Positions 1,008 to 48,870 are shown, numbered from the stretch's first letter. The stretch is DNA of 64,000 nt from Eledone cirrhosa (GCA_964016885.1 OZ024745.1:35898001-35962000), one strand, 5' to 3'. Notes: generated from the sequence alone by a model not told the origin. Program-made: numbers and translations.

Positions 1008-1595
1008 AAATATACATGCTTATTATAATAGATATTTTGAATGTATATCTATCTATTTAGATAACCGAAAGATTACAAACTCTTCTCTCACTTTATATCA
1101 ACACACCCGAAGTAACTCCTACTTCGTCTCCCCTCTCCCCAATCATATTGGAGGAGTGAATAAAATAGAAAGGGTGAGAAAATATTTGCGTATGTGTGTC
1201 TGTGTTGTATTTTGGTAGTCGCCTGGGCTGTCTGGTGTTCGGTGCCAAACAATACTTCCTCGCATGTAAGGTGACGTCAATGTACATCAGATAGGCTAGT
1301 TGTTCAACTATGACGCGCAAACATCACACACATTTCATCATAGGCTCGTTTCATGGAGGCTAATCTGTAGCTAAAGATCTAAGACGTAAACTCCTAGAAA
1401 TATCAGCCAAGTTCTCCGAGATCATAATGTAATGTGATTAACTAGGGAAGAACAAATTGGTAAATGTCATCTTATATCTACACAATATATATATATATTA
1501 TAAATATAAGCTATCGTCGTATTTTGACTAAAAAAAATTATTTAGCCTGATAGTGGGGTTAAGAACCCTCGGAGAAATGGAAAAAAGATGAGTAT

Positions 1596-1666
1596 TGACG
1601 TAGATGGGAGTCGAACCCAGATCTTTGGTTATCCAGACCACTGTACTACCATTACACCAAAACATC
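1596..1666 (-). ncRNA. tRNA-like module (71 nt, Gln-like body, GGA at the anticodon position), repeat-borne
   Basis: GATGTTT TG GTGT AATGGTA GTAC A GTGGT CTGGATA ACCAA AGATC TGGG TTCGACT CCCA TC TACGTC A. A and B boxes present; acceptor stem imperfect. Confidence 0.7.
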
Positions 1667-1870
1667 ACCCGTCTTCTTCCATTCAAATTAGAAGCTATAA
1701 TCTTAGCAACTGTAATGTCAAGTAAGAATATTTTCGAAACAGCGAGCGAGTTTGAAATTATAAATATAAGCTATCGCCTTATTTTGACTAAAGAAATTAA
1801 AGAAATTATTCTTACTTGACATTACAGTTGCTAAGATTATAGCTTCTAATTTGAATGGAAGAAAACAAGT

Positions 1871-1941
1871 GATAGGTTGGTGCAATGGTAGCACAGTAGT
1901 CTGGATAACCAAAGATGTGAGTTCGACTCCCATGTACGTCA
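1871..1941 (+). ncRNA. Second copy of the tRNA-like module
   Basis: Inverted copy of 1596-1666 with TGGTGCAATGGTAGCAC and GAGTTCGACTCC boxes. Confidence 0.65.
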
Positions 1942-3236
1942 ATACTCATCCGTTTCCATTTCTCCGAGGGGCCTTAACCCCACTATCAGGCTAAATAATT
2001 TCTTTAATTTCTTTAGTCAAAATACGGCGAGAGCTTATATTTATAATTTCAAACTCGCTCGCTGTTTCGAAAATACTCTTACTTGATATATATATATTGT
2101 ATATATATATATATATATATCAGAGGTATATATTGAGTTAGAAACTCAAAATAGTCTCTTACAATTAAATAGCTCAAAGAAAGAAGTTTTTTCTGAGCCG
2201 TGTACTATAATTGTATATACCAGAGAGATAAACACAAATATAAACATACATGTGTTCGAATTGTAAGGGACCAAGTTCACTAGGGTGAACAAAATTATAT
2301 ATATATACATGAGATGAGTTTTTTGCTCGAATATCAACTCAGATGAGTAGATGGGGCCGGAGTTGTGTCTAGCATTTGCATGGATCCTGAGCCTCTCATC
2401 TGTGAAATGGTCGTAACTCTGTATAATCAAGAAATATCATAATGTGAGACCTCGTTTTACCTTAATATATGTATGTGTGTGTGTGCGTGTGGGGGGTGGG
2501 GGGTTAGTACATATGAAGGCACGTCACTATATTTCCATACTTCAATTTATTAAATAACGAATACTATGCACACTTTAGATGTGCTAACACGTCAACGTAT
2601 GATAAGTCTGAAAGTAACCAGTCCACCCAATCCAATCGTTAACTCTCTAGTACGTCGCAGCTCTGGATATACTTCCGTATAACAACGTTTGCTGTATCTG
2701 ACAGCTTATATTCGTTCCCGAAAACAATATATGCCTCGCTCTGACCAATTCTGCCAAGCCATGACGCAGCCCTTCCTTCAAAGCCGAAAAATATAACAAT
2801 AATAAAACTAAAATATGTATAGCGATGAAGAAATGAAATGTTTAATGGATGAATGAGATCAACTATTTCATAATATTTCATATATCTCATTTATTAAGAG
2901 AGCATGAAATCTTTGGTCCGTTTGCGTAACCCGGAGATTTCTTTGTTTCATCATTATTCTAGAGACACTGTTCGAAGATTACATTTTTACCTAGTTATAC
3001 AACCATTTAGATTGCTCCAAAACTAACTACCCAACAATAAACATATATTGAAGAAACATAATTACAATATCTGATTCATTTCAGTGAGTCAATGGAATTG
3101 TGTCAGTGACTCGATGGTGAGGCTCATATACGCAGATGGACTATTCATAGTATATATTTCAGGAAGAAATAGAAACAGAAAGAAAATATTTTAATGGTTT
3201 AGCCGGAAAAACATCGACCATAAAAATATGTATAAT

Positions 3237-3457: not shown

Positions 3458-3650
3458 AATATAGAAATGGCTTCTACAGGACTAGAACTGTTTCATTCGG
3501 GAGAAATCATCAAGGCTTCCTGATATTTTTCCCGAATGAAACATTTCTAGTCCTGTAGAAGCAATTTCTATATTAAATATTTATACTCTGCTATGTATTG
3601 AGTACCTTACTTACTGCGGTTACCCCCGATTGAGCCCGCGATAAACTTAT
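3458..3650 (+). mobile_element. Short PLE-type terminal-repeat insertion: fold-back of two decayed HHR copies
   Basis: 3458-3512 is inverted against 3519-3574. Right arm reads GCTTC-CTGATAT..GAAA-CAT TTCTAGTC CTG-TA-GAAGC, homologous to the HHR at 16171-16223. TA-flanked. Confidence 0.75.
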
Positions 3651-6700: not shown

Positions 6701-7235
6701 GTTTTCTTATAAATTTTAGTCAATGTACTTCATCAGCATGAGAAATAATAACTAATTACGTTGTTCACACTTTAAATCCATTATTTGTGACTAGCAGAAA
6801 AATCACCTTTAGGGTGGTTTTTCTGCTAGCATGTGTAGTGTGTATATTGATATTAAAAGCAGGTATATATACATGTAGATATGATGCATCAAATAAAATC
6901 TGACAATATACACAGAAATTGAATGAAGACTGCGTTACACTATCTTATGTAATCAGTAACTTAATCCATGATACATTACAAAAGACGATATTATATATAA
7001 ACTGCATTAGGAGAAAATTAGTGACAGGAAATTAGTATGTTTATTTAAGCGATCGCCACCGGAAGTGTTGACATCACACACTCTCTTTTTCTATATATAT
7101 GTTAGTTGAAGTGGTGGTTTTGGCGACGATATACCGGAAGTGCAACTTTGAAAAGAAGTCAATTTTAAATTATTTATTTTTACGAAATTATTTTTGTTTA
7201 CGAAATTGAGTATATATAACATTCATTCATATTTT

Positions 7236-7421
7236 GGTGGTTTGACAGTATCGGTAGAGGGTCGGACAACATGCTTTGCAGCATAGAGTTACGCCCCTTT
7301 CTGATCTGAGTTCAAATCCTGCCGAGATTAACTTTGCTTTTCATCCTTACGGGGTCGAATAAAGTACCAGTATTGCATTGGGATAATTGCTGGCCTTGTG
7401 CCAAAAGTAGAAGCAATTATT
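7236..7421 (+). mobile_element. tRNA-derived SINE family A (diverged copy)
   Basis: B box GAGTTCAAATCC followed by TTTCATCCTTACGGGGTCG..AAGTACCAG (resembles the Meta/MESC central domain); homologous copies elsewhere in the window. Confidence 0.8.
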
Positions 7422-9480: not shown

Positions 9481-10544
9481 ATCTGTAATGCTTTCTTTTA
9501 TTCTTTCCAATTTTCTCCTCTTGATAAATGCATCGTTTCTTTCCAGGGATGTTGTTAAAAAATAAACATCATTTGGTCATTCAATAAGAGAATCCTGGTC
9601 GCTCTATGAACCTTTCAACCAATGAACGTATCAGCCGACCCTCGTATGTTTTGGTAAATGCTGGTTGTGTTCACCTCTACTTGAAACTTAACTGATGCAT
9701 TTAGCTATTTTTGATAATTGAATACAAATATATTCACCAAGTTTAGGCAGTAAATGTTTCAAACAAGGTGACCTATGAAACTCCTTCATGTGTGCAAACT
9801 TTGAAATAAGAGTGACAACTAATTGATATCCTGCAGGATTAGATATCCAAGCCGAGGTCACATATAAGCAACAAGAGAGACGAGGAAGAAATAAATTGAG
9901 GAGACAAAATCTAATCAAATTGAAAGATCTTTAACTTATGCTTCATTATACTAAGAAATGTATTTCATCAAATGAATCCCCATTCAACGTTTGGTACTTT
10001 AAACAGTTCATTGTTAAGTAATCGAAAGGAGATCCATCAAATAAATTTATTCTCGAGGAAATATTTATCAAAAGAAGTTATCAAAATAAGGAGAAACTGA
10101 TGAAAAGGAATTCTGGACTCCGGCATTTATTTCGAAATACCCATAACATCCTATACAAATCACTAAGCAAATATTATTTCAGTTATATAACTATTACTTT
10201 ATACAAACAAAAAGCCTCAATTACTTCTTTACAATTATAGAGAAATAATTGGACCAAAATCTTTGGTTAGATTATTGACTATATCGGGCCAAGTAAATCA
10301 TTCCATACTTAGAAATTCATCGGAATTACTATGCAAGGATAAGAGTTAGGTAAATAAATGATTAATAAACATATAACTGTATACAAAATTAATAAAACTT
10401 TGAAAATTAATGCAATGCATGTTTGCTTAAGCTATGGAGAACGTCCCTAAATCCGCCTCCAAATTGCACGACACACATCCAGTTTCTATGATACATTGTC
10501 CCTATAAAGCATTAAGCACAGACCGGAGACATTTATTCATTCAT

Positions 10545-10858
10545 TGGATTGGCAGTATCAGTAGAGAGTCGGACGCCATGCTTTCCAGCATAGTTACGCC
10601 CCTTTACGGTCTGAGTTCAAATCCCGCCGAGGTTAACTTTGCCTTTCATCCTTACAGGGTCGATAAAATAAAGCACCAGTAATGTACTGGGTAATTGCTG
10701 GCCTTGTGCCAAAAGTAGAAACAATTATTATAATACCCAAATCCCGCCGAGCTTAACTTTGCCTTTCATCCTTACGGGGTCGATAAAATAAAGTACCAGT
10801 AATACACTGGGATAATTGCTAGTCTTGTGCCAAAAGTAGGAACAATTATTATAATACC
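10545..10858 (+). mobile_element. SINE family A with tandem duplication of its 3' ~120 bp
   Basis: Near full-length copy at 10545-10733. CAAATCCCGCCGAG..ATTATTATAATACC occurs at 10618-10737 and again at 10738-10858. Confidence 0.85.
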
Positions 10859-15183: not shown

Positions 15184-15479
15184 ATTAATAAAAGCAATTC
15201 CAACTTTGTCTGATTTACTCCATTTATTTACAATCCTTTAAAATTTATAATGGTATTAGAATGAAATAGTATGGTAGAATATTAAATGTTAAGTGTTAAT
15301 TGAACAAGTACTTTCATATTATTATTGTTGTTATTGTTGTTAGTGGTGGCATGAAAGTACTTGTTCAATTAACACTTAACATTTAATATTCTACCATACT
15401 ATTTCATTCTAATACCATTATAAATTTTAAAGGACTGTAAATAAATGGAGTAAATCAGACAAAGTTGGAATTCCTTTTA

Positions 15480-15484
<5 letters not shown>
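15184..15484. repeat. Fold-back repeat with ~134-bp arms, in TA context
   Basis: 15184-15317 versus 15351-15484 are near-perfect reverse complements. Confidence 0.9.
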
Positions 15485-16881: not shown

Positions 16882-17032
16882 ATAATTGTTTCTACTTTAG
16901 GCACAAGGCCAGCAATTACCCAGTGCATTACTGGTACTTTATTTTATCGACCCCGTAAGGATGAAAGGCAAAGTCAACCTCGGCGGGATTTGAACTCAGA
17001 TCGTAAAGGGACGTAACTATGCTGGAAAGCAT
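16882..17032 (-). mobile_element. 5'-truncated SINE family A with 16-bp TSD
   Basis: TTTCTATATATATAAT at 16871-16886 and 17035-17050; near-identical to the copy at 32170. Confidence 0.85.
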
Positions 17033-17042
17033 AGTTTCTATA

Positions 17043-17325
17043 TATATAATGAAGGAGGTGTGGTGAGGAACCAGATGGACCATAACACACCAGAGTACTC
17101 AATACTTAGGGTAGTAGAGTGGGTAATAGGGACATGTTTGACCCAGACGACAGAGCTCAAGCCGTTTCGACGGCTATTTCTGGACTCAAATAGCCGTCAA
17201 AAAGGCTTTAGCTCTGCCGTCGGGGTCAAACATGTTCCTATTACCCACTCTACTACCCTAAGTATTGAGTACTCTGGTGTGTTATGGTCCATCTGGTTCC
17301 TCACCACACCTCCTTCGTTATATAT
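17043..17325. mobile_element. Fold-back copy of the 36755-37448 family (3' half of the HHR plus terminus)
   Basis: ~135-bp arms at 17043-17178 and 17187-17325; homologous to 36755-36892. Confidence 0.85.
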
Positions 17326-20371: not shown

Positions 20372-21028
20372 ATATATAGATAATTTAATATATCAACCAA
20401 CATAAGCGCACAGATGTACGCTAATGCCAGCAAATACACAGGTTATGTCATAGTACCTAGGTGGTTCAATGCAGGAGGATGCAGAACAATAATATAAAAG
20501 ACGTAAAATAAGAAAATCTTTTAAAAATTAAAAAAAAAAAAATGTTAACTTACTTACTTAAATTTTCACTCCAACTAATTAGTTTCTGCAATGGGATAAA
20601 GACAGTTACGTAATCTAACTGTCGAGAATTCATTGCGTCATCAGGGAGTCAATTCTCAGCTAAGTCTCCAGGCAATGCGCGGACACTGGCGGCTCATATA
20701 AAAATAATAATAATTCGGTAGATGGAGCAGCTAGCGGGGACTGAATTCCATGCACTGAAATCCTCACTGCCTCTAGTCAAATGGCCGATTCTAAAGAATC
20801 AATCACGTGACACAGAGGCTAGTCAGTAGCAATGGGATGGTAAGATGACAGACGCCTACTAACACCCCCAAAAAAATTTTAGAAGTGGTTTTGGCAGGTT
20901 TGCTCGACAAATCATGGATTTGGAGATACATATAGATAATTTAATATATCAACCACCATAAGCGCACATATGTACGCTAATGCCAGAAAATACACAGGTT
21001 ATATCATAGTACTTATTTTACGTCTTTT
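20372..21028 (-). mobile_element. Retrozyme-like element (~555-bp unit, diverged relative of 47971-48787)
   Basis: 20375-20457 repeats at 20931-21011; 21012-21028 is an inverted copy of 20495-20511; collinear homology to the 48-kb element. Confidence 0.8.
20568..20649 (-). ncRNA. Type I HHR with long stem II
   Basis: ACTCC-CTGATGA-cGCAATG..CATTGCa-GAAA-CTAATTAG-TT-GGAGT. Confidence 0.8.
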
Positions 21029-22632
21029 AGTTTAGCGATGTGGGTTTTAATGTTTAGTGAGAAAGGGGGGGCAAACCAAATTATGTTCCTAGTTCTATTT
21101 CTTTTTTGGCCTTTGGAATTATTGTAATGCTTTCTATTATAGTTGTTAAGGTTGTTGCCGTAATTAAAAAAGTTGTTACTTTGTTTAGTTTGTCTATCAT
21201 TATCTATGTACACAATCTTATCAGCATATCCTGCTCTAGCTAATGCTTCATTATAGTATTGGGCCTTTTCGTCGAAAATCTTTCTATTCGACGAGATCCT
21301 AGAGATACGTTTTTGAACAGAGTTTACAATAGTGTTTTTGACAGATCTGGGGTGGTTAGAGTTAAAGTTGACATAGTTTAAGTTTTCATTCAACTTGTGA
21401 AAAGGATAGTGGAGACATGTGTTGAGATTTAATGTTATATCTAGGAAATTGACTATTCTATGGTTGTTCTCAATTTCTATTTTAAGATTAAAGTAATTAA
21501 AAAATTTTGTAATTTGTTTACATTTTCTATTTAGTTCAGGGTTATTATTATTAATAAGTAAAAGCATGTCATCTCTATATAGACCTCCGGTAGTACCAGG
21601 TATTTTCCTATGTAGCGAATTGATTAAAAATAAGCCCACAAGGTCAGTTACCTGAGCTGAGTCGGATGATCCCATAGTTATATCAAAATTGCTATCTCTA
21701 TCTGCTCTGGTCCATAATTTGTCATTAAATTCTATCAAAGTTTTCCTAGCCGATAATATAATATGCATTTCTTTGCTAGTTAGGTCAGTATGTTTGAATG
21801 CGTAATTTAGTGCCTTATTTAGTAGACTAGGGGTAATAGAAGAATAATAGTTAGCTATATCAAGTTGAATAAACCTATTATTATTGTTATATTTAATTTG
21901 CTTAAACCACTCAACAACCTCTCCAGTTCCCTTCCACAAGCTCAGGTTAGATACACAATCCAAGTTCTTAATTTGCTTTATCACCCTGTCAAGAATGTTT
22001 TTGCTTAATTTGCCCAGGTCCGATTTTGATGGTGCGATCAATCTAACTGGCAGGTCATTTTCAAAATTCCTCTTGTGATCCTTCATATTGATCTTCGGTT
22101 TCCTGGGCACGAAAGGTTGTGTTCTGTTCTCAATTTCCAACTCGTGCATTATACAAGATGCTTCGACATTCATTTTCTCAAGTTCGGCCTTATCTGCTAC
22201 CTTGTACTTTTTCCTCAGCTCTTTCAGTATGAGGCCATTATACATGTCTTTCTGCACTCCATAGAGGTTGTTGGTCTTGTCAGATTTCACCAAGATCTTC
22301 TCAGTTTTCTCTAAGCTCTCAATGTTATCCTTAATGCCTTTCAGATATTCCTGGCCTTTGAAGTTTCTCTTGAATTTGACCCCTTGTATGATAGAAATTA
22401 TATCGTTTTCAAAGTCAGATAAAAGTTTGTTAGGGGGTGGATTTCTTTTAGATTTGAAAACTTTGTTTAAGTCCGAGACATTTTCGTTTGCATTAGATTT
22501 ATCAAAGTGGAATGCACGCCACCTGATTCTCCCTATAAAAGAGTCAGATTTATCTATTAATTGTTTTATAAAGTCTATGTTTCTAGGTAGAGGTATGTCT
22601 TTTAGAGAGGAAGTAATCTTAAAGAATTCCAT
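21013..22632 (-). CDS. PLE reverse transcriptase, N-terminal ~535 aa of the element ORF
   Basis: Motifs SLKDIPLP, RIRWRAF, KSDKTNN, IQLDIANYYSSI, TMGSSDSAQVTDLVG, LYRDD, NFLDITL, SNHP. The last four residues derive from the adjoining repeat. Confidence 0.93.
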   Translation of the reverse strand: MEFFKITSSLKDIPLPRNIDFIKQLIDKSDSFIGRIRWRAFHFDKSNANENVSDLNKVFKSKRNPPPNKLLSDFENDIISIIQGVKFKRNFKGQEYLKGIKDNIESLEKTEKILVKSDKTNNLYGVQKDMYNGLILKELRKKYKVADKAELEKMNVEASCIMHELEIENRTQPFVPRKPKINMKDHKRNFENDLPVRLIAPSKSDLGKLSKNILDRVIKQIKNLDCVSNLSLWKGTGEVVEWFKQIKYNNNNRFIQLDIANYYSSITPSLLNKALNYAFKHTDLTSKEMHIILSARKTLIEFNDKLWTRADRDSNFDITMGSSDSAQVTDLVGLFLINSLHRKIPGTTGGLYRDDMLLLINNNNPELNRKCKQITKFFNYFNLKIEIENNHRIVNFLDITLNLNTCLHYPFHKLNENLNYVNFNSNHPRSVKNTIVNSVQKRISRISSNRKIFDEKAQYYNEALARAGYADKIVYIDNDRQTKQSNNFFNYGNNLNNYNRKHYNNSKGQKRNRTRNIIWFAPPFSLNIKTHIAKLKDVK

Positions 22633-22768
22633 TTTTCCAGTTATAATATAAAGCGCTCAACAGTATTGGAGCAAGATACATGGAAAGTTATATTTAAAAT
22701 TGTTGGGTTACAACTAGTAAATATTTATAACTGATATAAAAGCACTCCACAAATATTTGGAGTATATT

Positions 22769-23689
22769 TACAATATTAAATAAATGGAAACTATATTTAT
22801 AAAACCATATTTATTTCATTATATATATTTCGGGGATATCATATTAACAATATGCTATGCCTTCCTCAGACAAAATACAATATAAACAGTTTTATAGATA
22901 AATAGATTCGACATACCGTCACAACACCGACTTGCATTTGGAGAGGTTGAGCTGGCAGTGAAAAAATTTTACACAGAGAGAAAGAAAGAGAGAAAGAAGA
23001 AAGAAAGACAGAAAACGAAGAAAAGGAAGAAAAAGAAGAAATGCATGGAGCAAAGTAGAGAGATGGAGAGATAGATAAGGAGAAGAGCTTCATGTAAAGA
23101 AACAGAAAGGGATATATATATATAGAGAGAGAGGAAATAGAGATAGATACATATATATATAGAAAATTAGGTAGTGGGAGGTCAGTTGAGTAAATGTATC
23201 AATGGTACATTTATTTATTTATTTATTTATTTATTTAGCTCTAGTATTAATGTAAGGGAAATATATAGAGAGAGAAAGAATATAGAAAAAAATAGCGAGA
23301 GAAAAATTTAAAAAATAGCCAGATATATTCGAGGCGTAAAAAACCCTATGTTTTAATGTATTAGTATTTATAAAACTTCCACTATATTGTAAATATCAGT
23401 AATTCCTGAATGAGACAAGTATCCATAGTGTGTGAAAATTAATTATCTTATGTTTAGTTTTTTTAAAAAATTCATATGTTTATGTGATAGCTACAAACAT
23501 GTGAATCCACATGATCAACTCTGCAAACTCTAAGTTCACGGAAAACATTCTCAATGTGGTATAAAACTTTGAGTATACAAATATGTGTATTATTATTCCT
23601 GTCTTTACTCTACAAGATTATCTATCAAGCAGAAATAGAGAGCAGATTTCAATATACTAATAAAAATATATATCAGAAACAAAACTAAA
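22769..23689 (-). repeat. pLTR copy 1 (~920 bp)
   Basis: Near-identical reverse complement of 24814-25738. Confidence 0.92.
22812..22877 (-). ncRNA. Minimal type I HHR in pLTR, ~180 nt upstream of the ATG
   Basis: Identical to 25630-25695. Confidence 0.75.
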
Positions 23690-24323
23690 CATTAAAACCC
23701 ACATCGCTAAACTATTTTTCAAAGCTCTTGATAATCACTTCCCTAGAACACATAGGTATCACTCAATTTTCAATAGGCATACAATTAAATTAACCTACTC
23801 ATCCACCAAAAATTTAGCACAAAATATTAATAGAATAAATAATAGGAACTTAAAACCTAGTGATAATAGCATAAATAATATACAAGTTAACAAATGTAAC
23901 TGTAGAGATAGATCTAAATGTCCGTTAAATAACAACTGCTTAGTTAAAAATATAGTATACAATTGTAATGTTAATACTGACTCTAATTCTTTTAACTACG
24001 TCGGTTCCACATCGACGGAATTTAAACTTCGCTATAATAACCACAAGAATTCTTTCACAGATCCAAGCAAAAAATCTTCAACGGCACTATCAGGCGTACT
24101 CTGGCAACTTAAGCTAGATAACGTTAGATATTCGACGGCTTGGAATATAGTCTCAAGAGGGATTCCTTTTAATTCATCCTCTGAGACATGTGACCTCTGC
24201 GCAGAGGAGATATTCTTTATACTAAAATCTAAAAATTCCCTTAATCTACGGACAAATTTATTCAGTTGTTGCAAACATAGATTAAACTCAACGTTTAAAT
24301 ATAAATTTAAATTTAAAATGTAG
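23685..24323 (+). CDS. PLE linker + GIY-YIG endonuclease, stop-free 212-aa frame without its own start codon
   Basis: Manual translation LNIKTHIAKLFFKALDNHFP..CNCRDRSKCPLNNNC..IVY..YVGST..FKLRYNNH..CDLCAEE..CCKH..KM*. The Cys motifs match Naiad-type endonucleases. Confidence 0.9.
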   Translation, partial: LNIKTHIAKLFFKALDNHFPRTHRYHSIFNRHTIKLTYSSTKNLAQNINRINNRNLKPSDNSINNIQVNKCNCRDRSKCPLNNNCLVKNIVYNCNVNTDSNSFNYVGSTSTEFKLRYNNHKNSFTDPSKKSSTALSGVLWQLKLDNVRYSTAWNIVSRGIPFNSSSETCDLCAEEIFFILKSKNSLNLRTNLFSCCKHRLNSTFKYKFKFKM

Positions 24324-24813
24324 TATATTTAGTTTGTTTTATATTTATATGGGAAACTAGCCGATAAATCTTTGATTCCTTCTTTTTATTCTTTTTATTG
24401 TTTATTTTTATTTTATTTTTATTTAAACATTCCTCATGAAAAATTAAGCTACCCTAAAAGCTGATGCTCCAAATATTTTGAATAAACCTTACACTAGATA
24501 AACCTCTATATTATATATAAGTACACATGTAGACCATTTTGGGCATCATAAACTTTTTGAAATGATCTTTGCTAGATGTGATTTGATGGATAATTTTTGG
24601 CTTTGTCTGTTTTTCGACTCTGATGCTTATAATGAACTTGGCAATATATTGTCAACTAATTTTGAAGGGTTTATCTTTGTGGTTTATTTTTATTTTTTAT
24701 TATTGTAGTATTTTCTAATATTTTTTATTTTTATTTTTAATATCTTTAATATGTAAATTTTTTAATATGTAATATTTTTAATATGTAATATTCTTTCGTA
24801 ATATTTTTATTTT

Positions 24814-25265
24814 TTTAGTTTTGTTTCTGATATATATTTTTATTAGTATATTGAAATCTGCTCTCTATTTCTGCTTGATAGATAATCTTGTAGAGTAAAG
24901 ACAGGAATAATAATACACATATTTGTATACTCAAAGTTTTATACCACATTGAGAATGTTTTCCGTGAACTTAGAGTTTGCAGAGTTGATCATGTGGATTC
25001 ACATGTTTGTAGCTATCACATAAACATATGAATTTTTTTAAAAAACTAAACATAAGATAATTAATTTTCACACACTATGGATACTTGTCTCATTCAGGAA
25101 TTACTGATATTTACAATATAGTGGAAGTTTTATAAATACTAATACATTAAAACATAGGGTTTTTTACGCCTCGAATATATCTGGCTATTTTTTAAATTTT
25201 TCTCTCGCTATTTTTTTCTATATTCTTTCTCTCTCTATATATTTCCCTTACATTAATACTAGAGC

Positions 25266-25296
<31 letters not shown>

Positions 25297-25732
25297 ATGT
25301 ACCATTGATACATTTACTCAACTGACCTCCCACTACCTAATTTTCTATATATATATGTATCTATCTCTATTTCCTCTCTCTATTTATATATATATCCCTT
25401 TCTGTTTCTTTACATGAAGCTCTTCTCCTTATCTATCTCTCCATCTCTCTACTTTGCTCCATGCATTTCTTCTTTTTCTTCCTTTTCTTCGTTTTCTGTC
25501 TTTCTTTCTTCTTTCTCTCTTTCTTTCTCTCTGTGTAAAATGTTTTCACTGCCAGCTCAACCTCTCCAAATTCAAGTCGGTGTTGTTACGGTATGTCGAA
25601 TCTATTTATCTATAAAACTGTTTATATTGTATTTTGTCTGAGGAAGGCATAGCATATTGTTAATATGATATCCCCGAAATATATATAATGAAATAAATAT
25701 GGTTTTATAAATATAGTTTCCATTTATTTAAT

Positions 25733-25738
<6 letters not shown>
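24814..25738 (+). repeat. pLTR copy 2 (~920 bp)
   Basis: Near-identical reverse complement of 22769-23689. Confidence 0.92.
25630..25695 (+). ncRNA. Minimal type I HHR in pLTR
   Basis: TATTTTGT-CTGAGGA-aGG..CATATT gtt AATATG..CCc-GAAA-TATATA-TA-ATGAAATA. Confidence 0.75.
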
Positions 25739-27370: not shown

Positions 27371-29388
27371 ATATACTTATGTATAGCGTGTGAATTTAGT
27401 TTGGGAACGTTAGGGATTCAGATTTAATTAAAAGGACAAAAATGTGTGTATCACCATACGTTTAATCTAGTGCGCGACAACAACTCGTAATAAGCGTTGG
27501 AGGCCAAACCTTTTAGTTCAATTTTACATGTATTTCGAAAATTCTAGAGTTAAACTGGAGGATATTCACAAAAGTAACCCGGAGCTTAACGTAATATAAG
27601 TATAACATCTGAGTTCTCTTTCCCCACTGGAAGAAGATCCTACCACTGCTGGCGCTTCGTTTCTTTACCATAAATAATGCCAAATATATCAGGGTAAAGT
27701 TAAATAATGGGCTAAAATGATTTCTTTAAAATGTAAAACTTGTAATATATATTACAATCTGTTTAATAGATAATATAATTAGTTGGAAGTAAATTAGTAC
27801 AGCTCTGTTATTATTAAACATTTTGAGAAGTTTTGTTGGGAGTAGCTAAAATTCTATGCTTTTCTACAAAGTGCTTTCCTAGTGGGAACAAGTCACCACA
27901 AAGACACAAAACAAACACACATGGATATATTTTTTACGTAATCAAATATATTATTATATGCATCATATAACGAGAATTGGATAAATGAAAGACCGAATGC
28001 ACGTACAGACCGTAATATCTAAAATCAAATTATAAGTATTCGTATAATTATTATATTATGTTTTTGTAAAACTTTTATTTGATTTTATCTATCATAGTTT
28101 TTCATGTATTAATCATGGGTAATATACGAATGCTGACAAATTGATATTTGTCAAATTTAATGTGATTTTCAAAAGTTGCATTGGTTGTATTTGTGACTTT
28201 GATATGTTTAAATGTATCTATTTGTTTGTCTATGTGTCTATTAAATCACTTGTGTGTATATCCATGTGACATTGTTTAAAATGACGTTGTTTGATATATA
28301 TATCTGAGTGTTCAGGTATATATTCGAAGTGACTTTTGTTCAGATTAATTAAGGAACAAAGGAACTATGGCGTATTTCTACAGCAACTGTTATAACTGTT
28401 AGTGGATACCGAGGACGTTTTCCCCCATCCATAAACCTGGTCTTAATATTAACAATATTAGCTCATATGACGCAGGTTTAACGTGGTGGTAATAAACGGG
28501 ATGTCTAATTAATTTTATCACCCTGAAACTCAAAATGTGAAGTTCAAAAACAAACACAATTCATCTTGTGCAACTCTGTCAATCCCCGCTTAGAAAAAAT
28601 ACTTTATTTAATCGAAGAGAAAATGTTGACATTGATGACATCTTAACTCAAATGGAAGAGAACCGTAACAAATACAAGTCATTTACTCTGTATTTGAAAG
28701 ATTCTGACGATTCACAATCTTAATAATGATAGGTATGTATATATTTGCACGTTTGAATTTGCTTCTGTGTACCTCATGAAATTGATGCTTGTATGCTATT
28801 ATATGCATTTGGTGTACAGTTGCTTGTTATATAATTTATTTAAGGTGGCATTTATCGCTAATTAGTCACAAAATGCTACTTGAGAAGGTAGAAAACTGAA
28901 AATAAAAGGTAAAAGTGTGTTCTGTTTGAATTTCATGTTAGCCCTACTTGGAGGTCATTAATGGTTTGCTGTAGGTCCCTCTACGTTTGAGGATGAGAGG
29001 ACATGGAGAGATATATCCAATGGGCATATTGATGATTTTAATTTGATGTTTCAAAATATACCGCTTTTACAGGGTTCAAAGGCTACAGAAGCTCTTTAAT
29101 ATCTGATGGAATTTTATGTAAAAGTTGCCATTTAATAATATGTGATGTTTAGCAAATCCTATGCATAGCTTCTTTGGTGTCTTTCGCCATTGCAATATTC
29201 TATGCATCTAATTATATTTTTAGAGTATATCATAAAATGTTTTGGCAAACAACCACACACGTATACATTTTTATATCTTTATATATGTATGTATATATAT
29301 ATGGTTTGTGTGTACGTGAGAGTGTGTAGGATTATGTGCATCTATCTCCCCCCCCCCACACACACACATATATATATGTATATATATA

Positions 29389-31506
<2,118 letters not shown>

Positions 31507-32169
31507 TTTGAACCCGAGACTACTACACAACTTTCTTGCTTACCAATTTCACTCAATACTTACTTCCTAACTATAACACCCCCCCCCCCAGTACTAACCA
31601 GTACGTTGCTTATCGTAATAAATGGATACTTAAGTACGATAAGAAAACTACAGCTATCAACTCGGTCTATATAGCCTTTCCTTCCCCTTCTCTTAACTTA
31701 TTTATGTCCCTTCTCTCTCGCTCTCTCTTTCTCTTTCTTTCTCTCTCTCTCTCTCTCTCTCTCGCTCTCTGTCTATCTCCTTCCTTCCCTACATCTATTA
31801 ACCTGCTCTCTGTGGCAGTAAATAATTCCAAACTTGATAACATCAACACAATGCCCATGCTGTCACTTTGAGAGTAAGCAGTATAATAAAACCACTTGTT
31901 GAACCCCTATCACAACATTTAGATTAAGCTATCTGTATTCTTCAAACCACTCTCTCCCATTTCTCCTCCCCTACATCTCTCTCTCTCCCTCTCTCTGCCT
32001 CTCTCTCTCCCTCTCGCTCGCTCTCTCTCCCTTTCTTTCTATCTTCCTTTTCTACTTTATCTTCCCCAATGACTCCCTTTAAGAAATATTAAGAAATTAT
32101 GATCCAGCCATATTAGTTCTGAAGAATTGGTGGTAAGAACAGCATTTGAAAATTGAGTATCTGGAAATT

Positions 32170-32357
32170 AATTGTTTCTACTTTAGGCACAAGGCCAGCA
32201 ATTACGCAGTGCATTACTGGTACTTTATTTTATCGACCCCGTAAGGATGAAAGGCAAAGTCAACCTCGGCGGGATTTGAACTCAGATCGTAAAGGGACGT
32301 AACTATGCTGGAAAGCATGGCGTCCGACCCTCTACCGATACTGCCAATCCACCGCCC
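32170..32357 (-). mobile_element. Full-length SINE family A with 18-bp TSD
   Basis: GAGTATCTG(G/A)AAATTAAT at 32155-32172 and 32364-32381. Confidence 0.85.
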
Positions 32358-32537: not shown

Positions 32538-32833
32538 AAGAGACGTAAAATAAGAAAATTATAAAATTAACTTACTTACTAAAATATCACTTCCAACTAA
32601 TTAATATCGTCTTCGGAAAATATATTTACTCCATTCCAGAAACTAATTAGTTGGAAGTGATATTTTAGTAAGTAAGTTAATTTTATAATTTTCTTATTTT
32701 ACGTCTCTTATATTATTGTTCTGCAACCCCATGCATTGAACCACAATGTTATTAAGACAAAACCTATATATTTGCTAGCATTGATATGCATGCATCTGTA
32801 TGTATATATATGTTACTAGATATGAATTCTTTA

Positions 32834-32836
<3 letters not shown>
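32538..32836 (+). mobile_element. Truncated fold-back copy of the 532-bp retrozyme-like family
   Basis: 32538-32602 is inverted versus 32643-32709. 32635-32836 is homologous to 48061-48255 (GAAACTAATTAGTTGGAAGT). Confidence 0.8.
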
Positions 32837-32896
<60 letters not shown>

Positions 32897-32898
32897 TT

Positions 32899-33099
32899 AT
32901 TTATTAAAATAACAGATTTAAAGTTTAAGCAAAGAATCGGTGCTTTCGCCCTTAACGTTAAGGGTGAAAGCAGCGATTCTTTTGCTTAAACTTTAATCTG
33001 TTATTTTAATAAATATTTGCTCTACGGTTCTTATATATTTGATATATATTTATCCTTATCGAGCCCTCTTTGGATTTTAGTCTTCAAATTTATTATTTT

Positions 33100-34223: not shown

Positions 34224-36120
34224 TATTAATTGAAAATATTAACAAAATAGATATTCTTGTGATCAATTATATTTTATTATACATATTTCAGAGGCACTGA
34301 GTTAAGTTCAACAGTACGTCCTCATCAGATAAAATAAAATGATACATGTCATACCCTGACATAGTAGATGGTTAAGATTAAATCAAGGTAGTGATTAACT
34401 TATGACAAAACTCAATATTTATACCTTGATATTGAGAACATGAGATAACATAATACAAACAATAGAGAGGGTGCATCAATATAACAGTTATAAATTTTGT
34501 TATTTTTAAAAACTACTGGAGAAAGAGGAGGGAAAGGAAAGGATAGAGAGAGGAACAGCTGATGTGATAATATTTTTAGTAGGTGGCTTGAGAAGACTTA
34601 TGAAAGATGATTAAAGAGAGATAGAGAGACAAAGGGGAGTAATTTATGTTCAAGTTTATATACACACAGATTTATGTATAATCAACATGCGTCCAGAACA
34701 ACATAGTTGGCGGTTAATTTTCAATATATTTAATTTAAGTTATTTCAGGGTAAAGAACAATATTTTAGGTTTTAAAAGTTAATAGGTATTTGTATTAATA
34801 TTATAATATAATTATGTTTAATTTCTAAAATTCTAATTTTATGAAAACAAATTTAATGGATTTACGAAACACGAGAAAGAAAAAATATATATATAATGTT
34901 TTATATCCTCACGAAGGTAATCTTTACCAAAATTACTTATAATATTGACAACTGTTTCTATAATATAATTTATAAGATAATTATAGTTATAATTATTAAA
35001 AAATGTATTGTTAAATAGTTTGAGTGCCTAAAGTTTATATAGGGACGATATTTTATTTACGGTTGTTAAACAACAATATAGAACTAAATATGGTAAAGAA
35101 AAATATAATTGAATTCTTTAAAAATTACGACCTTAAAAAGAGGTAGAAAGTGGTAACAAAATAGTTAATTTCCTTGTTGTTACCCTTAACTTAAACTCTG
35201 GTTTGTATTACCCTTTCCATGAACATCCCCAGAAGATCCATGATTTGTGCTGAATCAGATGATCCCATGGTAAATTCGAAGTTTCTATTTCTATCTGAGC
35301 GGGTCCAATACTCATTGTTGAAGTTAATTAGAGTTCTTCTAGCAGTTAATATGATATCAATTTCATCCGTAGTTAGATCAGTATGTTTCTAAGGGTATGA
35401 TAAAGCCTTATTTAGTAGGTTAGGCGTAATGGAAGAGTAATAGCTTGTTATGTCCATTTGGATGAATTTACGGTTTTTCTTATCATCTATATTATTATAC
35501 CATTCAATGACTTCATTTGTATCCTTCCACAAGCTCAATTTAGACCTCAATTTCAAAGTAGGTAGAATTCTATCAATAATATTTTTACTGATTACTCCAA
35601 TATCCGATTTGGATGGAGCAATCAGTCTAACTGGCAGGTCTTCCTCGAAATTTCTTTTGTGATCCACGGCTGTCTAGGTATAAGAGGCTCTGTTCTTCCT
35701 TCAATTCCTAATTTAGCAATTAATTTATATGCATCATTATTAATATCTCTAAGCTCTTCAGCCGGGGCTTTTTTATAATTTTTCCTTAGTTCTATTAAAA
35801 TCAAGTTATTATATTCTTCTTTATTTATCCCATATAAATTATTTGTTTTGTCCGATTATACCAATATTTTATTAACTTTTTTTATTTCCGAGATTTTTTC
35901 TTTTAAAGTTCTAAGGTATTGGTGACCTATATATGGGTTTTATTTTATTGGTAACTTACATATGGGTTTTATTTTATCTAAAGAGGACGTACTGTTGAAC
36001 TTAACTCAGTGCCTCTGAAATATGTATAAGAAAATATAATTGATCACAAGAATATCTATTTTGTTAATATTTTGAATTAATATTAATAACTCTGGAAAAC
36101 TGTTTTTGTTGAGTGCTTCC
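34224..36120. mobile_element. Rearranged decayed Naiad PLE
   Basis: pLTR minus from 34224; RT piece plus ~35005-35220 (LYRDD, FLVVTLNLN); RT piece minus 35221-35930 (SDKTN, IQMDITSYYSSI, TMGSSDSAQ); pLTR piece plus 35966-36120. Confidence 0.85.
34267..34340 (-). ncRNA. Minimal type I HHR
   Basis: TATTTTAT-CTGATGA-gg..GTACTG..CAGTGC..-GAAA-TATGTA-TA-ATAAAATA. The plus-strand copy at ~35970-36040 has a mutated core (CTAAAGA). Confidence 0.8.
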
Positions 36121-38486: not shown

Positions 38487-39165
38487 TATAAACGTTTGAA
38501 TATGTGTAATAAGGCCAAGACAATGCAGGTATGGACATAGAAAAAAGAATGCAATAGTGAAAGATATTGATGTGAATTCGTCTTTCACCTTGAATTTATT
38601 TAAATGTCCTTAAATTTCGAGATAATATCTCTTCTTCGGTGGAAGTAAAGGTCTCAAACCAGCGTCTTTAAATCTCTAGCCAAGCCATGCTGACCGGAAA
38701 TAGTATAGAGTATCTGTTCTAACTCTAATATCAAAGAATTAAAATTAGGTGGATAAAGAGTAGTCTCCCTTTAAGAGGGGTTTATTTAGGTTTTTTTTTT
38801 TTTTTCCATGCATTCTCCCACACACATATACAGGCACGTATATAAAATAAAAAAAAAAATAAAAAAACCTAAACAAACCCCTCTTAAAGGGAGACTACTC
38901 TTTATCCACCTAATTTTAATTCTTTGATATTAGAGTTAGAACAGATACTCTATACTATTTCCGGTCAGCATGGCTTGGCTAGAGATTTAAAGATGCTGGT
39001 TTGAGACCTTTACTTCCCTCCGAAGAAGAGATATTATCTCGAAAATTAAGGACATTTAAATAAATTCAAGGTGAAAGACGAATTCACATCAATATCTTTC
39101 ACTATTGCATTCTTTTTTCTATGTCCATACCTGCATTGTCTTGGCCTTATTACACATATTCAAAC

Positions 39166-39172
<7 letters not shown>
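38487..39172. repeat. Long fold-back repeat with ~315-bp arms, TA-flanked
   Basis: 38487-38802 versus 38850-39172 are near-identical reverse complements. Confidence 0.92.
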
Positions 39173-42508: not shown

Positions 42509-43118
42509 CTCTATCTATCTATCTAAGGCGGGTAAAATTCCCGAGATCCATAGACGAGTTCTCTCCAGCGGTCTCTGTCCCTCATTATCGCTGCCATGTC
42601 CTGCGTCTCCAACAGACCAGTGTCTGTCCTTAGGGCATCAACATACGTTAGCCTTGGTCTTCCTCTTCTAGTGTGTCCATGTAGGGGCTCCCACAGGAGC
42701 ACTGAGTGCAATGTCAACTCTGGATGTCGGTGAGCATGTCCAGATAACCTCAGTCTCCTCTGTGTCACTTTTGAGCTGACTTTTGGGATGCTCCCATACA
42801 GCTCTGAGTTTTTCATCCTCAGTGTATACTGATTAATGTTCAGAGCCATCCTCAGCATTCTCGTGTAGCACCCATCCACCATCTGAGTGAGTTTCTAATG
42901 TAGGCGGGAAGCCGCTAGAATTGGTTGAAGGCTTCCTGTATTTGGGAGCAAAGATTGGGAATACGGAGGGTGATGTGGTTGAGAGGAAGAGCAAAGCCTG
43001 GGCGGCGTGCCACAGCTTCAGATCGGTGTGGAAGTCCGACCTTCGTAAAGACCTGAAAATCCGCCTCTTCATTGCTGTAGTGGAGTCTGTGCTGCTGTAT
43101 GGGTCTGAGACTTGGATA
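42509..43118 (-). mobile_element. 5'-truncated, 5'-inverted RTE-type LINE with (TAGA)n tail and 32-bp TSD
   Basis: Minus 42523-42900 encodes DGCYTRMLR..RLRLSGH..RRGRP..DRDRW. Plus 42902-43115 encodes the preceding FLYLG..ESVLLYGSETW. TSD at 42477-42508 and 43119-43150. Confidence 0.9.
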
Positions 43119-43152
43119 CTATATGTATGTATGTCTCTCTATATGTATGTAT

Positions 43153-43668
43153 GTTCTCTCTTTCTCTTAATTTCGAGTACATTTTTGACCGGCCACCTTC
43201 CTGGTGGCAAGGTTGTAAAGGAAAGGAAATTATCATCCCATGAATCGCAAGAATGTTTTGCAAATTTTGAAGGTGCCAGCTATCGCAGCTATTTGTAGAC
43301 AATGAATTAGGGAGCTACGCTCTTTGTCCGCAAATCCAAGTTCAGTTATACATTAGTCCAAGCGCGTTGGTATATAACCTGTAGCTCCAATAATAATGGG
43401 TATGAAGCTAAAGGCGTATCTTGGATACAGGATTTGTAAACTCCTCATCAATGGTCCGTAGATGTCCTCCTTCTCCTATATTTTTCTGACAACGTTTACA
43501 TCAAGTGGGCTGCTGATCTCCACAACAGAACACGTTTTCAATGTGTGGTCCCAAACAACAATATCAGGCCGGTTGTGCTTTAATTTTGTGGCAGTTTTTA
43601 TTTTCAGGTTCCACTAGTATTCCTTAGTGCCATCTGTCTCAATATATTCTTCCTCGTTTTATTTTAAT
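43153..43668 (-). mobile_element. R4/Dong-like non-LTR 3' fragment (restriction-like endonuclease), copy 1
   Basis: Manual translation WNLKIKTATKLKHNRPDIVVWD..VVEISSPLD..PIIIGATG..KICKTFL, with stops. Confidence 0.8.
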
Positions 43669-43695: not shown

Positions 43696-44472
43696 GTTCT
43701 TCTGGTTTCACAAATTTTTCCCAATAGCGAGAGAGCCGGTTTCTAACATAGACACAAGACTCTCTCATTGGAATTTACACAGCATCAACTAGGTAGATAT
43801 GTATGCATGTCTGCATGCATGTGTAGATATGGGTGTTATTGTATGTGTGGATGTGTATGTTTTGAGTTGTATGTCTGCATGTGTATATGCTTAGTATCTG
43901 TACATGTGTGCATGCAGTTATTAGATGCAAACGTTTCGGAATGTTTTACATATTTTTACTGTTCCATTAATGGATTGTACTTGTAATTTCCTAACTAGTT
44001 GTGTTCTTTCTGTTCCTTTGAAGCTCAGCTTCTCAAGATTTGTATTGAGGCAGTTACTAACATATCCTAGTGCCCCAATAATCACAGGCATACATCTGAA
44101 GGTATAATCAGGGCGGAGTGTCTGCAGACTTCTCCTCAGTTCTGCATAAATATTCTCCTTTTCGCTAATCTTTGATATAATATTGGCATCCACTTGACAG
44201 CTAACATCCACTACTTTGCATACTTTCTTCTCCCTGTCCCATATCATAATATCTGGTCTGTTATGCCTACATTTTATTCGGGCCTTTACTGGAACATTCC
44301 ACCAGTACTCTTTCATATTATGTATATATATGTCTTCCACATTGCTGTAGCTTTTAATGTGTTTATTATCGGGGATATCTTTTCTACGGATTGCAATGTA
44401 CAGTGTTTTGGCCACTACATCATGCCTCATAGGTAGATAGTAACGCGATGAGATCTTTGGACAGCTGCTTAT
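43696..44472 (-). mobile_element. R4/Dong-like non-LTR 3' fragment, copy 2
   Basis: ORF 43921-44577 contains ISSCPK..RHDVVA..HNRPDIMIWD..PVIIGALG. Its N-terminal part is microsatellite-derived. Confidence 0.85.
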
Positions 44473-47400
44473 GTATATATGGATATATGTATGTATGCTT
44501 GTAAGTATGAATATATACATATATGTATATATAAATATATAGTCTTCAGCTAGCATATATTTTCTGCGTAAGAGCATTATCAGAAAAGAAATTTCGCAAA
44601 TTTGAATAAATTTATGAATAGGTATATAAACCGTATTTTAAAATGCCATAGTTGTTCTAGACGTAATACTTAGAATCAAGCAAATGTACATTAATTAATA
44701 TAACAATGCAACATTTCGACTAAGATTACTGAATACGTAAAGATATATTCATTTACAAACCAGACGCTAATTACTAACAACAAAAATATTTTCCAAGCGA
44801 TAATCCATTAGAGAGGCTTTAAAATACACCAAAAGATAAAATCGAAACATCTTACGTCGATCTATTTTCTTTATCCTTTTGTTCTTATATTTCTTTGATT
44901 TATTGCAGTGCTGAGATGTTTTAGTTACTTGTATCGAACCCTGCTTTGTCTGTTATGCATTTTTGTCTGTTATGTATTTAATCAATTACCTGTTACATTA
45001 CGTTATTGACATAAAATGACTGAATCCATAAACGGAGACACGGAACACATGCACACACATATACAAACACACACGCACACACACACACATACAGACATAT
45101 TACCCCCCTACACCCACACCCCGACACACAGGCACATACATATTACACACACACACACCCACAAACAGGCACATACATATTACACACACACACACATATA
45201 TATATATTGCACTGGTTCTAGCACTTTTGATATGACGTTATAGTGGAGAAACACCTTGGTTTTCAAGAACGTATAAGAAAATAAGGAAATATGGGGAAAG
45301 CTGTGGAAAGCAGAAGGTCCAATAATGCTCGGAAAGGAGATTGAAAGTATGGTTGAAAGCAACAAAGAGTAACACTGTATTTAGAAGCACTCGGACTTGG
45401 GCTAGTTAAGGTGATTTGAAACAAGTATGCACCATAAATACAATCCAATAAAAGTTAAAAGTATCACGAATGTCATAAGACATGTCTATTATGTGGGGTA
45501 GAGAAAAGAGCGAATCCCACTTGGAAGCAGAGTGTATATGCCTGACTTCGATAATGAACAAGCAAAATGTTTATAACACATGGAACATATATCGCATAAT
45601 TTGTCCCAGAGAAAGATACAATAATTTCTAACATAATAAATGTAGCTTGCTCATTTGACATAAGCATGAAAGTAATGGAAAACTAGAAAATAAATAAATA
45701 CTAGAATCTAATGTTGTTGTGGAAATGCAGAGCGATAATAGTACTTAATGTTATACTAGTACCATTATATGATAGATCTGAAAATATCACAAACTAATTT
45801 TCTACGATCGGCTTAACAAAAGAACGTACAACACAACAGAAGGAATACCCTTGTTGGCTTTTGATACCTACGGAATATCTAAATAATCAATTAGTGGACT
45901 GAGGTATGAATGAAACCAACGAATTCTACAACTGTGCAAATTATACAACCAACAGAACAACAAAGGAGATAATAAAAATAATAGTAATAATATAATGCAT
46001 TCATCTAATAAGTAACGAAATGACGACACATAATAAATAATAAATGGTAAAAGACCAAAATGTTATAATTTATATAATTTAGCATTTAAGAAAAAAGGAC
46101 AACATAGAATAAATTTAAGAGTTGAAGTAAAGTATGAGATAGATTGATGAAAGAGCTCACCTACAGATATCTAATTTATTAATGACAAATGAGAACGGTG
46201 AAAAGCGGAAAATGAAATAAGTATACAAATTCTACACAACAGTGACAAAATATTAGATTTAACATTTTTGAATTATATATAATGTAAAACAGCAAGAACA
46301 TGAGTACACAGCTAGGTAGGAGAGCATTGGAACATATTAGATAAGTTGTTTGAGAGCAACGTTAGGAAATATATATTGAGAAATATATTTAGCAAAAATA
46401 CGCATTACTCAAAATCTAATGATAAATCAAATCAACATACCAACAATTACAATGAAGAAATAAATACTAGGTGCATAGAACATTTAAAATGTCAAACATT
46501 GGAAACAGAAATTCCTGTGAAACAGAAATTACATCAGATCAGCATTCTAAGGGATTATATACACAATATAATTTGTATTATACACTAGAAAAAACACAAG
46601 AAACAAATAACAATAAGTAAAACAAAAATACAAAGCTAATCTCAGCACCCAGGATTAAACATCAGTTATCAATTATACTCTGAGAATGAGGTGACAAAAC
46701 CTGCTTCCACTCAGAACAGCCAGCTATATCTACCCTAACCGTTCCTTATTCAGGTGCGATGATCTCAATCCGACATCGGTGAAGAGATTGGCATCCAGAA
46801 AACAGAAAACAGTTCAAGATTCAGCAGCGGCCGCCGCAAATTGGAATCTATACATTTATATAATATTCAAAGCTTCAGTGAAATTATTTCAAATAAAAGA
46901 GTTAAAAAGGATGCATGTATTAAGGAATTGATGAAATAATCCAGAAGACGAAAAATAGTGTAGATAAGACTTCTAATTCGAAATAAGGAAGAAAATGTTC
47001 AATATATTAAATGGGAAAATGCTGTCCAGACAAGGTGAAATGCAGCAAAAACATTTTGTATAACAATGAATTCATTCACCTCTAAAAACACTACAATTTC
47101 CCTAATAGGAGAAGAAGATTTGAACTGTCCAAAATATGTATGGGGTCGCTGAAAATTCTGAAATCAGTTCTCAAACCGCATTCATGGTACAGCTTATTAT
47201 CTTACCTTGAAATGGCATATTAGGTGATAGAAACTTTAAAAAAAACAGACCATAACTAATGAATTTTGATGGTACAGATTTGTATTATGAGTTGAAATAA
47301 CAATGACATATAAATAAACGAAGCCTATAAAATTTCAAATGTTCAAACATGTTATTTAATGGAACACAGAGAGGCCTGGAGATTATACACCTTATGCATA

Positions 47401-47904: not shown

Positions 47905-47971
<67 letters not shown>

Positions 47972-48000
47972 GCATTGCCTGGAAACTTAGCTGAGAATAG

Positions 48001-48781: not shown

Positions 48782-48870
<89 letters not shown>

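Follow-up and report, generated by a model that had tools for sequence, protein, structure and literature searches.

A probable PLE-type non-autonomous element with an internal tRNA-like module and no detectable hammerhead in Eledone cirrhosa

Organization of the locus

The window analysed here is a 64,000-nucleotide stretch of Eledone cirrhosa DNA (GCA_964016885.1 OZ024745.1:35898001-35962000), AT-rich animal DNA that is rich in (TA)n and (CA)n; all positions are counted from its first letter. At 1497-2086 lies one circularly permuted, non-coding unit of about 265 bp, present as two copies that stand head-to-head within (TA)n (Table 1). The unit measures 260 nt in copy A and 267 nt in copy B. 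Copy A reads along the minus strand from 1810 to 1497, starting at the equivalent of B position 1994 and ending at the equivalent of 2047, and the 54-nt partial unit at its 5' side creates a direct repeat within it (1497-1536 and 1757-1796). Copy B reads along the plus strand from 1811 to 2086, closes with a 9-nt tandem overhang (2078-2086), and ends 39 nt beyond the point at which copy A ends. The outer ends abut the target (TA)n directly, at two different points of the unit and with no simple-repeat tail. Family sequence 5' of the tRNA-like module amounts to 60 nt in B and 144 nt in A, the latter comprising 90 nt of the full unit and the additional 54 nt. An earlier note, made from the sequence alone, had described a permuted unit of about 265 bp with a tandem overhang, an inverted permuted copy and TA flanks, and the copy lengths, partial unit, overhang, 1810|1811 junction and external (TA)n bear that description out.

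Table 1. Features of the unit and its flanks
Feature	Position	Strand	Evidence or remark
(TA)n target, left flank	1485..1496	.	sequence
Copy A, full 260-nt unit	1497..1756	-	3' end 1497 = B position 2047
Copy A, 54-nt partial unit upstream of the full one, truncated at its 5' end	1757..1810	-	= B 1994-2047
Head-to-head inversion junction	1810..1811	.	its two sides are different points in the unit
Copy B, one 267-nt period	1811..2077	+	starts 60 nt 5' of its tRNA
39-nt extension past the 3' end of copy A (PLE-type "tail")	2048..2086	+	contains overhang 2078-2086; cf. PMC8557442, Fig. 2 legend (source available in part)
(TA)n target, right flank	2087..2120	.	sequence
tRNA-like cloverleaf, copy A, 71 nt	1596..1666	-	Rfam RF00005, 35.2 bits; ARAGORN; 17/21 stem pairs
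tRNA-like cloverleaf, copy B, 71 nt	1871..1941	+	Rfam RF00005, 29.6 bits; 16/21 stem pairs
T6 run, Pol III terminator-like, 10 nt 3' of the copy A tRNA	1581..1586	-	sequence, T-run count
Family T5 site, ten bases after the tRNA	1951..1955	+	broken in copy B; majority letters restore it
Leader, copy A	1667..1684	-	predicted pairing with trailer 1593->1575, lengthening the acceptor stem
Leader, copy B	1853..1870	+	complementary to trailer 1944-1961 when majority letters are used; decayed in B

Across 1811-2047 the two copies differ by 18 substitutions, a 1-nt gap and an 8-nt gap, with their arms offset in register; across 1994-2086 they differ at 3 of 93 positions. Because these substitutions and gaps separate the copies, the pair is not one molecule folded back on itself. 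The 53 nt nearest the junction (1811-1863) are identical in A and B, and 16 of the 18 substitutions fall in the next 109 nt (1864-1972), an unevenness that possibly reflects either two template variants or gene conversion near the centre of the hairpin.

The family in read and contig sets

Four of twelve sequence runs were aligned on 1805-2090 at 80% likeness: the contigs of X1, the reads of X10, and the contigs of X5 and X4, which come from two other organisms. X1 contributed 2132 contigs on the unit (200 at 99% identity or more, 429 at 95-99, 929 at 90-95 and 574 below) and X10 contributed 2655 reads, the matches of both being mostly at 80-95% identity; X5 gave 3 contigs and X4 gave 9. The family is plainly abundant and diverged, and summed depth does not equal copy number. 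Some of the joints listed go back 264-267 nt, both in contigs of X1 and in 18 reads of X10 (four starts), so head-to-tail units exist beyond the locus in the window; with the matches themselves they agree with the high-copy permuted family that had been proposed. Opposite-strand joints were found at least four times in X1, in one contig each (1869/1957, 1877/2005, 1933/2005 and 2006/2051). Those of X10 at 1931/1935 and 1936/1940 coincide with 4-base palindromes and were disregarded. Two scans of metagenome contigs for exact patterns found zero matches, and in a scan of viral contigs five loci had an 18-base match, with no tRNA in any of them and no flanking similarity in the one examined, as expected of chance.

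Depth in X1 runs from 110,000 to 287,000 at 1895-1944 and from about 166,000 to 293,000 at 1905-2034 (167,000-293,000 at 1945-2034), falls to 76,000-96,000 at 2035-2074, and is at most 18,600 at 1805-1874 (about 18,600 at 1835-1854), so that sequence like 1811-1860 is about tenfold rarer than the downstream part. Dense mismatches of copy B at 1864-1883 account for part of this drop, though not for the low depth at 1835-1854. With depth there ten times lower than at 1905-2034, the majority of relatives either begin close to the tRNA or differ from the unit upstream of it. The possibility that the tRNA was a one-off insertion is refuted: X1 depth over its 3' half is about that of the downstream part, and the tRNA is also present in the runs of the two other organisms.

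Among the loose ends listed, those of X10 before 1869, 1877 and 1884 comprise 230, 188 and 223 reads, with agreement of 0.73, 0.96 and 0.78, respectively. These 641 reads, together with an X5 contig that breaks before 1877, carry a homologous leader of 20-30 nt, the length of which is limited in X10 by a cut site at AATT. In X1, the 22 contigs with a loose end before 1884 (again among those listed) are mixed, with an agreement of 0.57 and an AT-rich far end. Piles of X10 read ends at 1848/1851, 2000, 2006/2009 and 2045 all lie at AATT and were taken as RAD enzyme cuts and not as element ends; X10 depth was not used as a profile.

The tRNA-like module

Both cloverleaves exceed the Rfam RF00005 gathering cut-off of 29 bits, and ARAGORN calls copy A only, as Ser(GGA). 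In copy A the GGA anticodon occupies positions 34-36 and is followed by a pyrimidine at 37, the variable loop is 4 nt, and A-box and B-box motifs were found in both copies. The 71-nt mid-unit fold of the earlier note is matched by Rfam in both copies. Its placement was right in part, in that the fold at 1871-1941 is real, but this is the weaker copy and the stronger one on the opposite strand had been omitted.

A single broken pair, a G-A mismatch at the top of the anticodon stem, is common to A and B. With reads aligned on B, the majority letters at 1874, 1875, 1898 and 1920 mend all four pairs that are broken in B alone. The three pairs broken in A alone are intact in B; the letters of B at these places are not among the variants listed (40 of 76), and loose ends support 1876. 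Counted by hand, the family majority cloverleaf has 20 of 21 pairs. The base at U33 (1902) is C in 16.6% of the depth of X1 and in 208 of 955 X10 reads.

A functional cytosolic tRNA-Ser has a long variable arm, a purine at 37, an invariant U33 and a paired anticodon stem. A working tRNA-Ser gene is therefore ruled out by the 4-nt variable loop, the pyrimidine at 37, the mismatch in the anticodon stem and the replacement of U33, and the module does not serve as a decoder. Comparison with phage tRNAs by blastn for the isotype gave weak, mixed matches only; the module presumably resembles eukaryotic tRNA-Gln. A bulge-helix-bulge splice site of the sort seen in permuted tRNA genes was rejected, there being just one 3-nt bulge.

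A T-run and a predicted leader-trailer helix flank the module

Two features flanking the module are additional to those of the earlier note: a T-run after the tRNA and a predicted helix between leader and trailer. No T4 run occurs in the tRNA strand of copy B. Selection for read-through was considered on that account and dropped, as the state of B is a minority in the family. The letter at 1951 is T in 97.7% of X1 depth and in 1529 of 1632 (93.7%) X10 reads, that at 1952 is T in 99.9% of X1 depth and in 1537 of 1631 (94.2%) X10 reads, and both are T throughout X4 and X5. T5 is the family state in about 94-98% of aligned sequence. For human Pol III, T5 is a strong terminator, with no read-through in vitro and a detectable leak in cells (PMC3141230, available in part). 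Many of the X10 loose ends behind 1995 are T-rich, and this stretch is a possible second Pol III stop.

The leader-trailer duplex of copy A has a predicted energy of -15.7 kcal/mol, which 52 of 5000 shuffles equalled and which is the best among 5778 window pairs in the unit; that of copy B is weak (651 of 5000 shuffles as good). The predicted helix extends the acceptor stem beyond a 3-nt bulge. It has 17 of 18 pairs with majority letters and 16 of 16 with the leader of a second subfamily, both counted by hand on unphased letters. All six leader variants listed keep or restore pairing; four of them face U, which pairs with either purine, and they are therefore a weak test of the helix. Folding of the leader-tRNA-trailer segment of copy A gave z -2.15 on the tRNA strand (6 of 200 shuffles) versus z -0.32 on the other strand, the minimum-energy fold of copy A being a rod and not a cloverleaf. 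Because the outer pairs lie downstream of the T-run, the full helix would form only in read-through RNA.

Search for ribozymes

The absence of a hammerhead core had been remarked upon from the sequence, and systematic searches agree. Neither strand of the unit has a CUGANGA-type core or a compensatory variant of one, and a type I hammerhead descriptor gave zero matches in four of four strand/copy scans, even when one core mismatch was allowed; as a control, the descriptor found four of six regions in neighbouring elements. An antisense look-alike that would use the leader-trailer helix as stem III has two core mismatches, a 1-bp stem II and a 0-bp stem I, and was rejected: at such laxity 389 of 2000 shuffles match, and 45 of 2000 do so with the first four core letters intact. 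Rfam on 1490-1815 at E<=10 returned tRNA alone, but this blank for ribozymes carries little weight, since the same search misses the neighbouring hammerheads among the matches listed (150 of 157) and is thus of low sensitivity. Descriptors for HDV-like, twister, pistol and hatchet ribozymes, crude and run without a positive control, gave zero matches.

Probable mobilization by a PLE

The insertion signature of PLEs includes a partial tandem, an inverted 5' copy, a one-sided tail of 30-40 bp, a bias toward microsatellites and a target-site duplication that is often not discernible (PMC8557442, available in part). The locus has a partial tandem that forms a pseudo-LTR, an inverted 5'-truncated copy, a 39-nt tail and a (TA)n target. 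The length of the tail is a measurement at one locus, and the one-sided offsets of neighbouring families exceed it. Hydra-type PLE ORFs are found in the window at 21013-22656(-), 23664-24323(+) and 29330-31506(+), with DKT, CxCX5C and an RWR that matches RWK; these are Hydra-clade motifs, and Hydra elements insert into (TA)n (PMC8557442, same extract). The nearest named relatives of the reverse transcriptase in the window are Argonauta hians proteins at 36-41% identity; relatives are proteins of about 700 aa on contigs of 2.3-2.9 kb. The PLE ORFs get no match in a Pfam search, and between the unit and the PLE ends in the 64-kb window there is no similarity beyond chance (best E 0.17).

Hammerhead cores of neighbouring elements lie at 25638, 36606, 48007 and 48539 on the plus strand and at 22869 and 34328 on the minus strand, and in the elements checked the 3' end of the hammerhead strand faces the flanking (TA)n. 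By that rule, the template strand of the unit is taken to be the tRNA strand. The unit is read as a variant of the retrozymes and of Sm-alpha: a PLE-type, likely non-autonomous element that carries its tRNA module internally, has no detectable hammerhead and was very probably mobilized by a PLE.

How its template arises is a separate matter. At a tandem source locus, Pol III would start just 5' of the tRNA module by way of the A and B boxes and mostly halt at T5, and occasional read-through past T5 would yield RNA longer than the unit. In such RNA the leader and trailer may pair, so that a 16-18-bp helix would seal the cloverleaf and keep the module whole. The PLE enzyme would nick (TA)n, prime close to the unit's AT-rich 3' part, copying from there toward the 5' end with variable stops, and a second priming could then give the inverted copy and the 39-nt one-sided extension. 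One read-through would produce RNA from about -20 to the 3' part, the putative common class; two would produce wrap-around copies like A, expected to be rarer, which agrees with the tenfold step in depth. The tRNA part is likely a leaky promoter that is carried whole and not a cutting site.

Against transcription by Pol III stand the presence of T5 in most of the family sequence and the two read-throughs that copy A would need. The suggestion that Pol III transcribes multimers is accordingly possible by way of leaky read-through only, and is weakened by T5 ten bases after the tRNA in most sequence. The model as a whole, copying in trans by the reverse transcriptase and GIY-YIG endonuclease of a PLE, probably of the Hydra clade, from longer-than-unit RNA made by leaky Pol III read-through, is put forward as moderately probable, because 5' truncation of a Pol II RNA fits the depth step equally.

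Other explanations of the unit

The same PLE-mobilized element could instead have captured a tRNA gene whole (leader, coding part, trailer and T5), which would either be carried along passively or serve as a folded domain for recognition, with host Pol II read-through of tandem copies providing the template. T5 does lie where the terminator of a tRNA gene canonically stands, the helix spans sequence upstream of the normal Pol III start and downstream of T5, and an acceptor stem, which a DNA promoter does not need, has been retained. The A and B boxes, however, are intact in both copies in the window, and this explanation is considered unlikely.

An ordinary SINE with a tRNA head, most copies of which begin at or just before the tRNA, would make of this locus and a few others secondary tandem and inverted rearrangements. 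It would account for the roughly tenfold fall of X1 depth 5' of the tRNA and for the poor agreement and AT-rich far end of the X1 loose ends before 1884. SINEs also make up 11.6% of the Octopus vulgaris assembly, in which most recent families are unclassified (PMC13282606, available in part). Copy A, however, continues for 90 nt of the unit upstream of its tRNA and runs across the unit boundary; the three groups of X10 loose ends (agreement 0.73-0.96) and the X5 contig share a leader; the joints that go back 264-267 nt recur in both X1 and X10; and a simple-repeat tail is absent. In addition, a T5 ten bases past the head is atypical of a SINE with a 150-nt body, and the divergence of B at 1864-1883 itself depresses aligned depth there. 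A SINE origin is considered improbable.

The earlier note had suggested that processing of multimers by RNase P or RNase Z may substitute for a ribozyme; in such a scheme the enzyme would cut at the tRNA fold and thereby yield unit-length templates in place of the hammerhead. The near-intact majority cloverleaf, acceptor stem included, would suit such cleavage, two of the X1 opposite-strand joints (1869 and 1877) fall near 1871, and no other ribozyme emerged from the crude descriptors and the low-sensitivity Rfam search. These joints sit, however, where alignments to B break by mismatch, as do the loose ends at 1869, 1877 and 1884, and they do not, for that reason, mark ends. No demonstrable pile of junctions is seen at 1871 or 1941, and cuts at both sites would excise a tRNA that the units keep. 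The helix, moreover, pairs the bases beside both cut sites, and leader-trailer pairing of such a kind hinders nuclear RNase P. The products of RNase P and RNase Z bear 5'-phosphate and 3'-hydroxyl ends. These differ from the hammerhead ends that RtcB joins in retrozymes (PMC7229834, available in part). Since many PLE-type elements move well without a hammerhead (PMC8557442, in the portion available), a substitute for it is unnecessary, and ribozyme replacement by RNase P or RNase Z finds no support and appears slightly less likely than either a captured gene or a SINE. Long inverted repeats can be artefacts of assembly or of library fold-back, and the X10 opposite-strand joints do sit at 4-base palindromes, but with arms that differ by 18 substitutions and two gaps in an offset register, and with many TA-flanked inverted insertions of other families in the window, such an origin is highly improbable here.

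Comparison with known elements

The preferred reading, a PLE-mobilized unit with a tRNA module, places it nearest to the animal non-LTR retrozymes, which likewise have a non-coding unit in the range of about 170-400 nt (the period here is 260/267 nt), tandem junctions and a proposed mobilization by PLEs (Cervera & de la Pena 2020, PMC7229834; Li, Clavereau & Pollet 2026, 10.64898/2026.07.22.740005; both available in part). Each retrozyme unit is defined by a type I hammerhead, and abundant linear and circular RNA is a further mark of retrozymes; in the present unit no hammerhead was detected, and it carries a tRNA module. The term "tRNA" occurs zero times in the 2026 preprint (10.64898/2026.07.22.740005). 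Sm-alpha and Sj-alpha of Schistosoma share with it a tRNA-derived Pol III promoter in a short unit prone to tandem arrangement. In S. mansoni this promoter is Gln-TTG-like, the upstream copy transcribes the next, and it is joined to a hammerhead (PMC2770079, PMC6765202, in the parts available). The hammerhead of Sm-alpha is active, whereas the present unit has none and carries T5 and the leader-trailer helix.

Among other PLEs, non-autonomous Chlamys elements such as MRC1 and the hammerhead-free Naiad/Chlamys elements (Craig et al. 2021, PMC8557442) resemble the unit in their partial tandems, inverted 5' copy, one-sided tail, microsatellite target and want of a canonical hammerhead. No tRNA module is described for them in the available text of that paper. 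Non-autonomous Chlamys elements share 3' ends with their autonomous partners (PMC8557442, again in part); for the present unit no such likeness to a PLE end was found within the 64-kb window.

The TRIMp3 elements Cassandra and Helenus (Kojima 2024, PMC10886601, available in part) are alike in having a presumed Pol III promoter, derived from a small RNA, inside a terminal repeat, and terminally redundant RNA has been shown for Cassandra. They are of LTR type, with a PBS, a PPT, a 5-bp TSD and a Copia/Gypsy partner, in contrast to the PLE-type inversion, tail and (TA)n here. Membership in TRIMp3 (an LTR pair, PBS, PPT and a TSD of 4-6 bp) was rejected on arrangement, which is inverted and permuted with no internal region. 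With tRNA-derived SINEs (PMC3531059, available in part) the unit shares shortness, many copies and tRNA-derived A and B boxes, but SINEs have the tRNA as a 5'-terminal head, end in a simple-repeat tail and are non-tandem, whereas the two copies in the window have an internal tRNA and lack a tail, and the family shows tandem joints. SINE-derived satellites are known (PMC10702118, in the text available).

A tRNA-bearing, hammerhead-free PLE parasite was not found in a literature search mostly of freely available papers, and no description of such an element appears in the available text of two cephalopod repeat papers and a butterfly preprint; the family may already be listed elsewhere under unclassified SINEs. 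SINEs parasitize LINEs, and TRIMp3 elements parasitize LTR elements, by means of small-RNA promoters; a tRNA-bearing element without a hammerhead, moved by PLEs, would, if true, fill the matching slot for PLEs. The unit also offers a short natural substrate for asking what a PLE reverse transcriptase recognizes in trans and whether hammerheads are needed, and the conserved T5, spanned by the predicted helix, allows Pol III read-through to be tested sharply and at low cost. In annotation, units of this kind would wrongly be labelled tRNA genes or SINEs. A broader proposal, according to which these units would belong to a recurrent, unnamed class of Penelope parasites that arose in several animal lineages, with a helix-closed tRNA domain replacing the hammerhead and with Pol III, La and a single RNase P/Z cut setting the unit-length RNA for the PLE reverse transcriptase, is speculative and doubtful.

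Other elements in the window

The Hydra-type PLE at 21013-25738 consists of two inverted arms, the reverse transcriptase part being on the minus strand and the endonuclease part on the plus strand with a 31-bp overlap, and it has hammerhead cores in both pseudo-LTRs (22869 on the minus and 25638 on the plus strand). More broken Hydra-type PLE ORFs lie at 29330-31506 and 35228-35673. A hammerhead family at 47971-48784 has a tandem unit of 532 bp and a (TA)n end; its canonical cores (48007 and 48539) are absent from the Rfam matches listed. Its relative at 20379-21015 (72-77%) meets the PLE minus arm where that arm ends, at 21013, without any TA in between, possibly as the result of a template switch.

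Short palindromic insertions of other families occur at 3464-3568, 15186-15482, 17051-17318, 32539-32838, 32898-33015 and 38491-39168; most end in (TA)n, and several are without a hammerhead core in the piece examined. The fragments at 42523-43298 and 43921-44637, which had no Pfam match, are presumed to resemble the reverse transcriptase and endonuclease ends of a LINE. The transposase-like ORF at 61600-63429 is broken and contains a Spin-doc zinc finger (PF18658). The sequences at 7221-7421, 10535-10858, 16885-17032 and 32166-32353 belong to an ordinary SINE-like family whose B-box lies close to the 5' part, and one of these copies contains a partial tandem (10738-10858).
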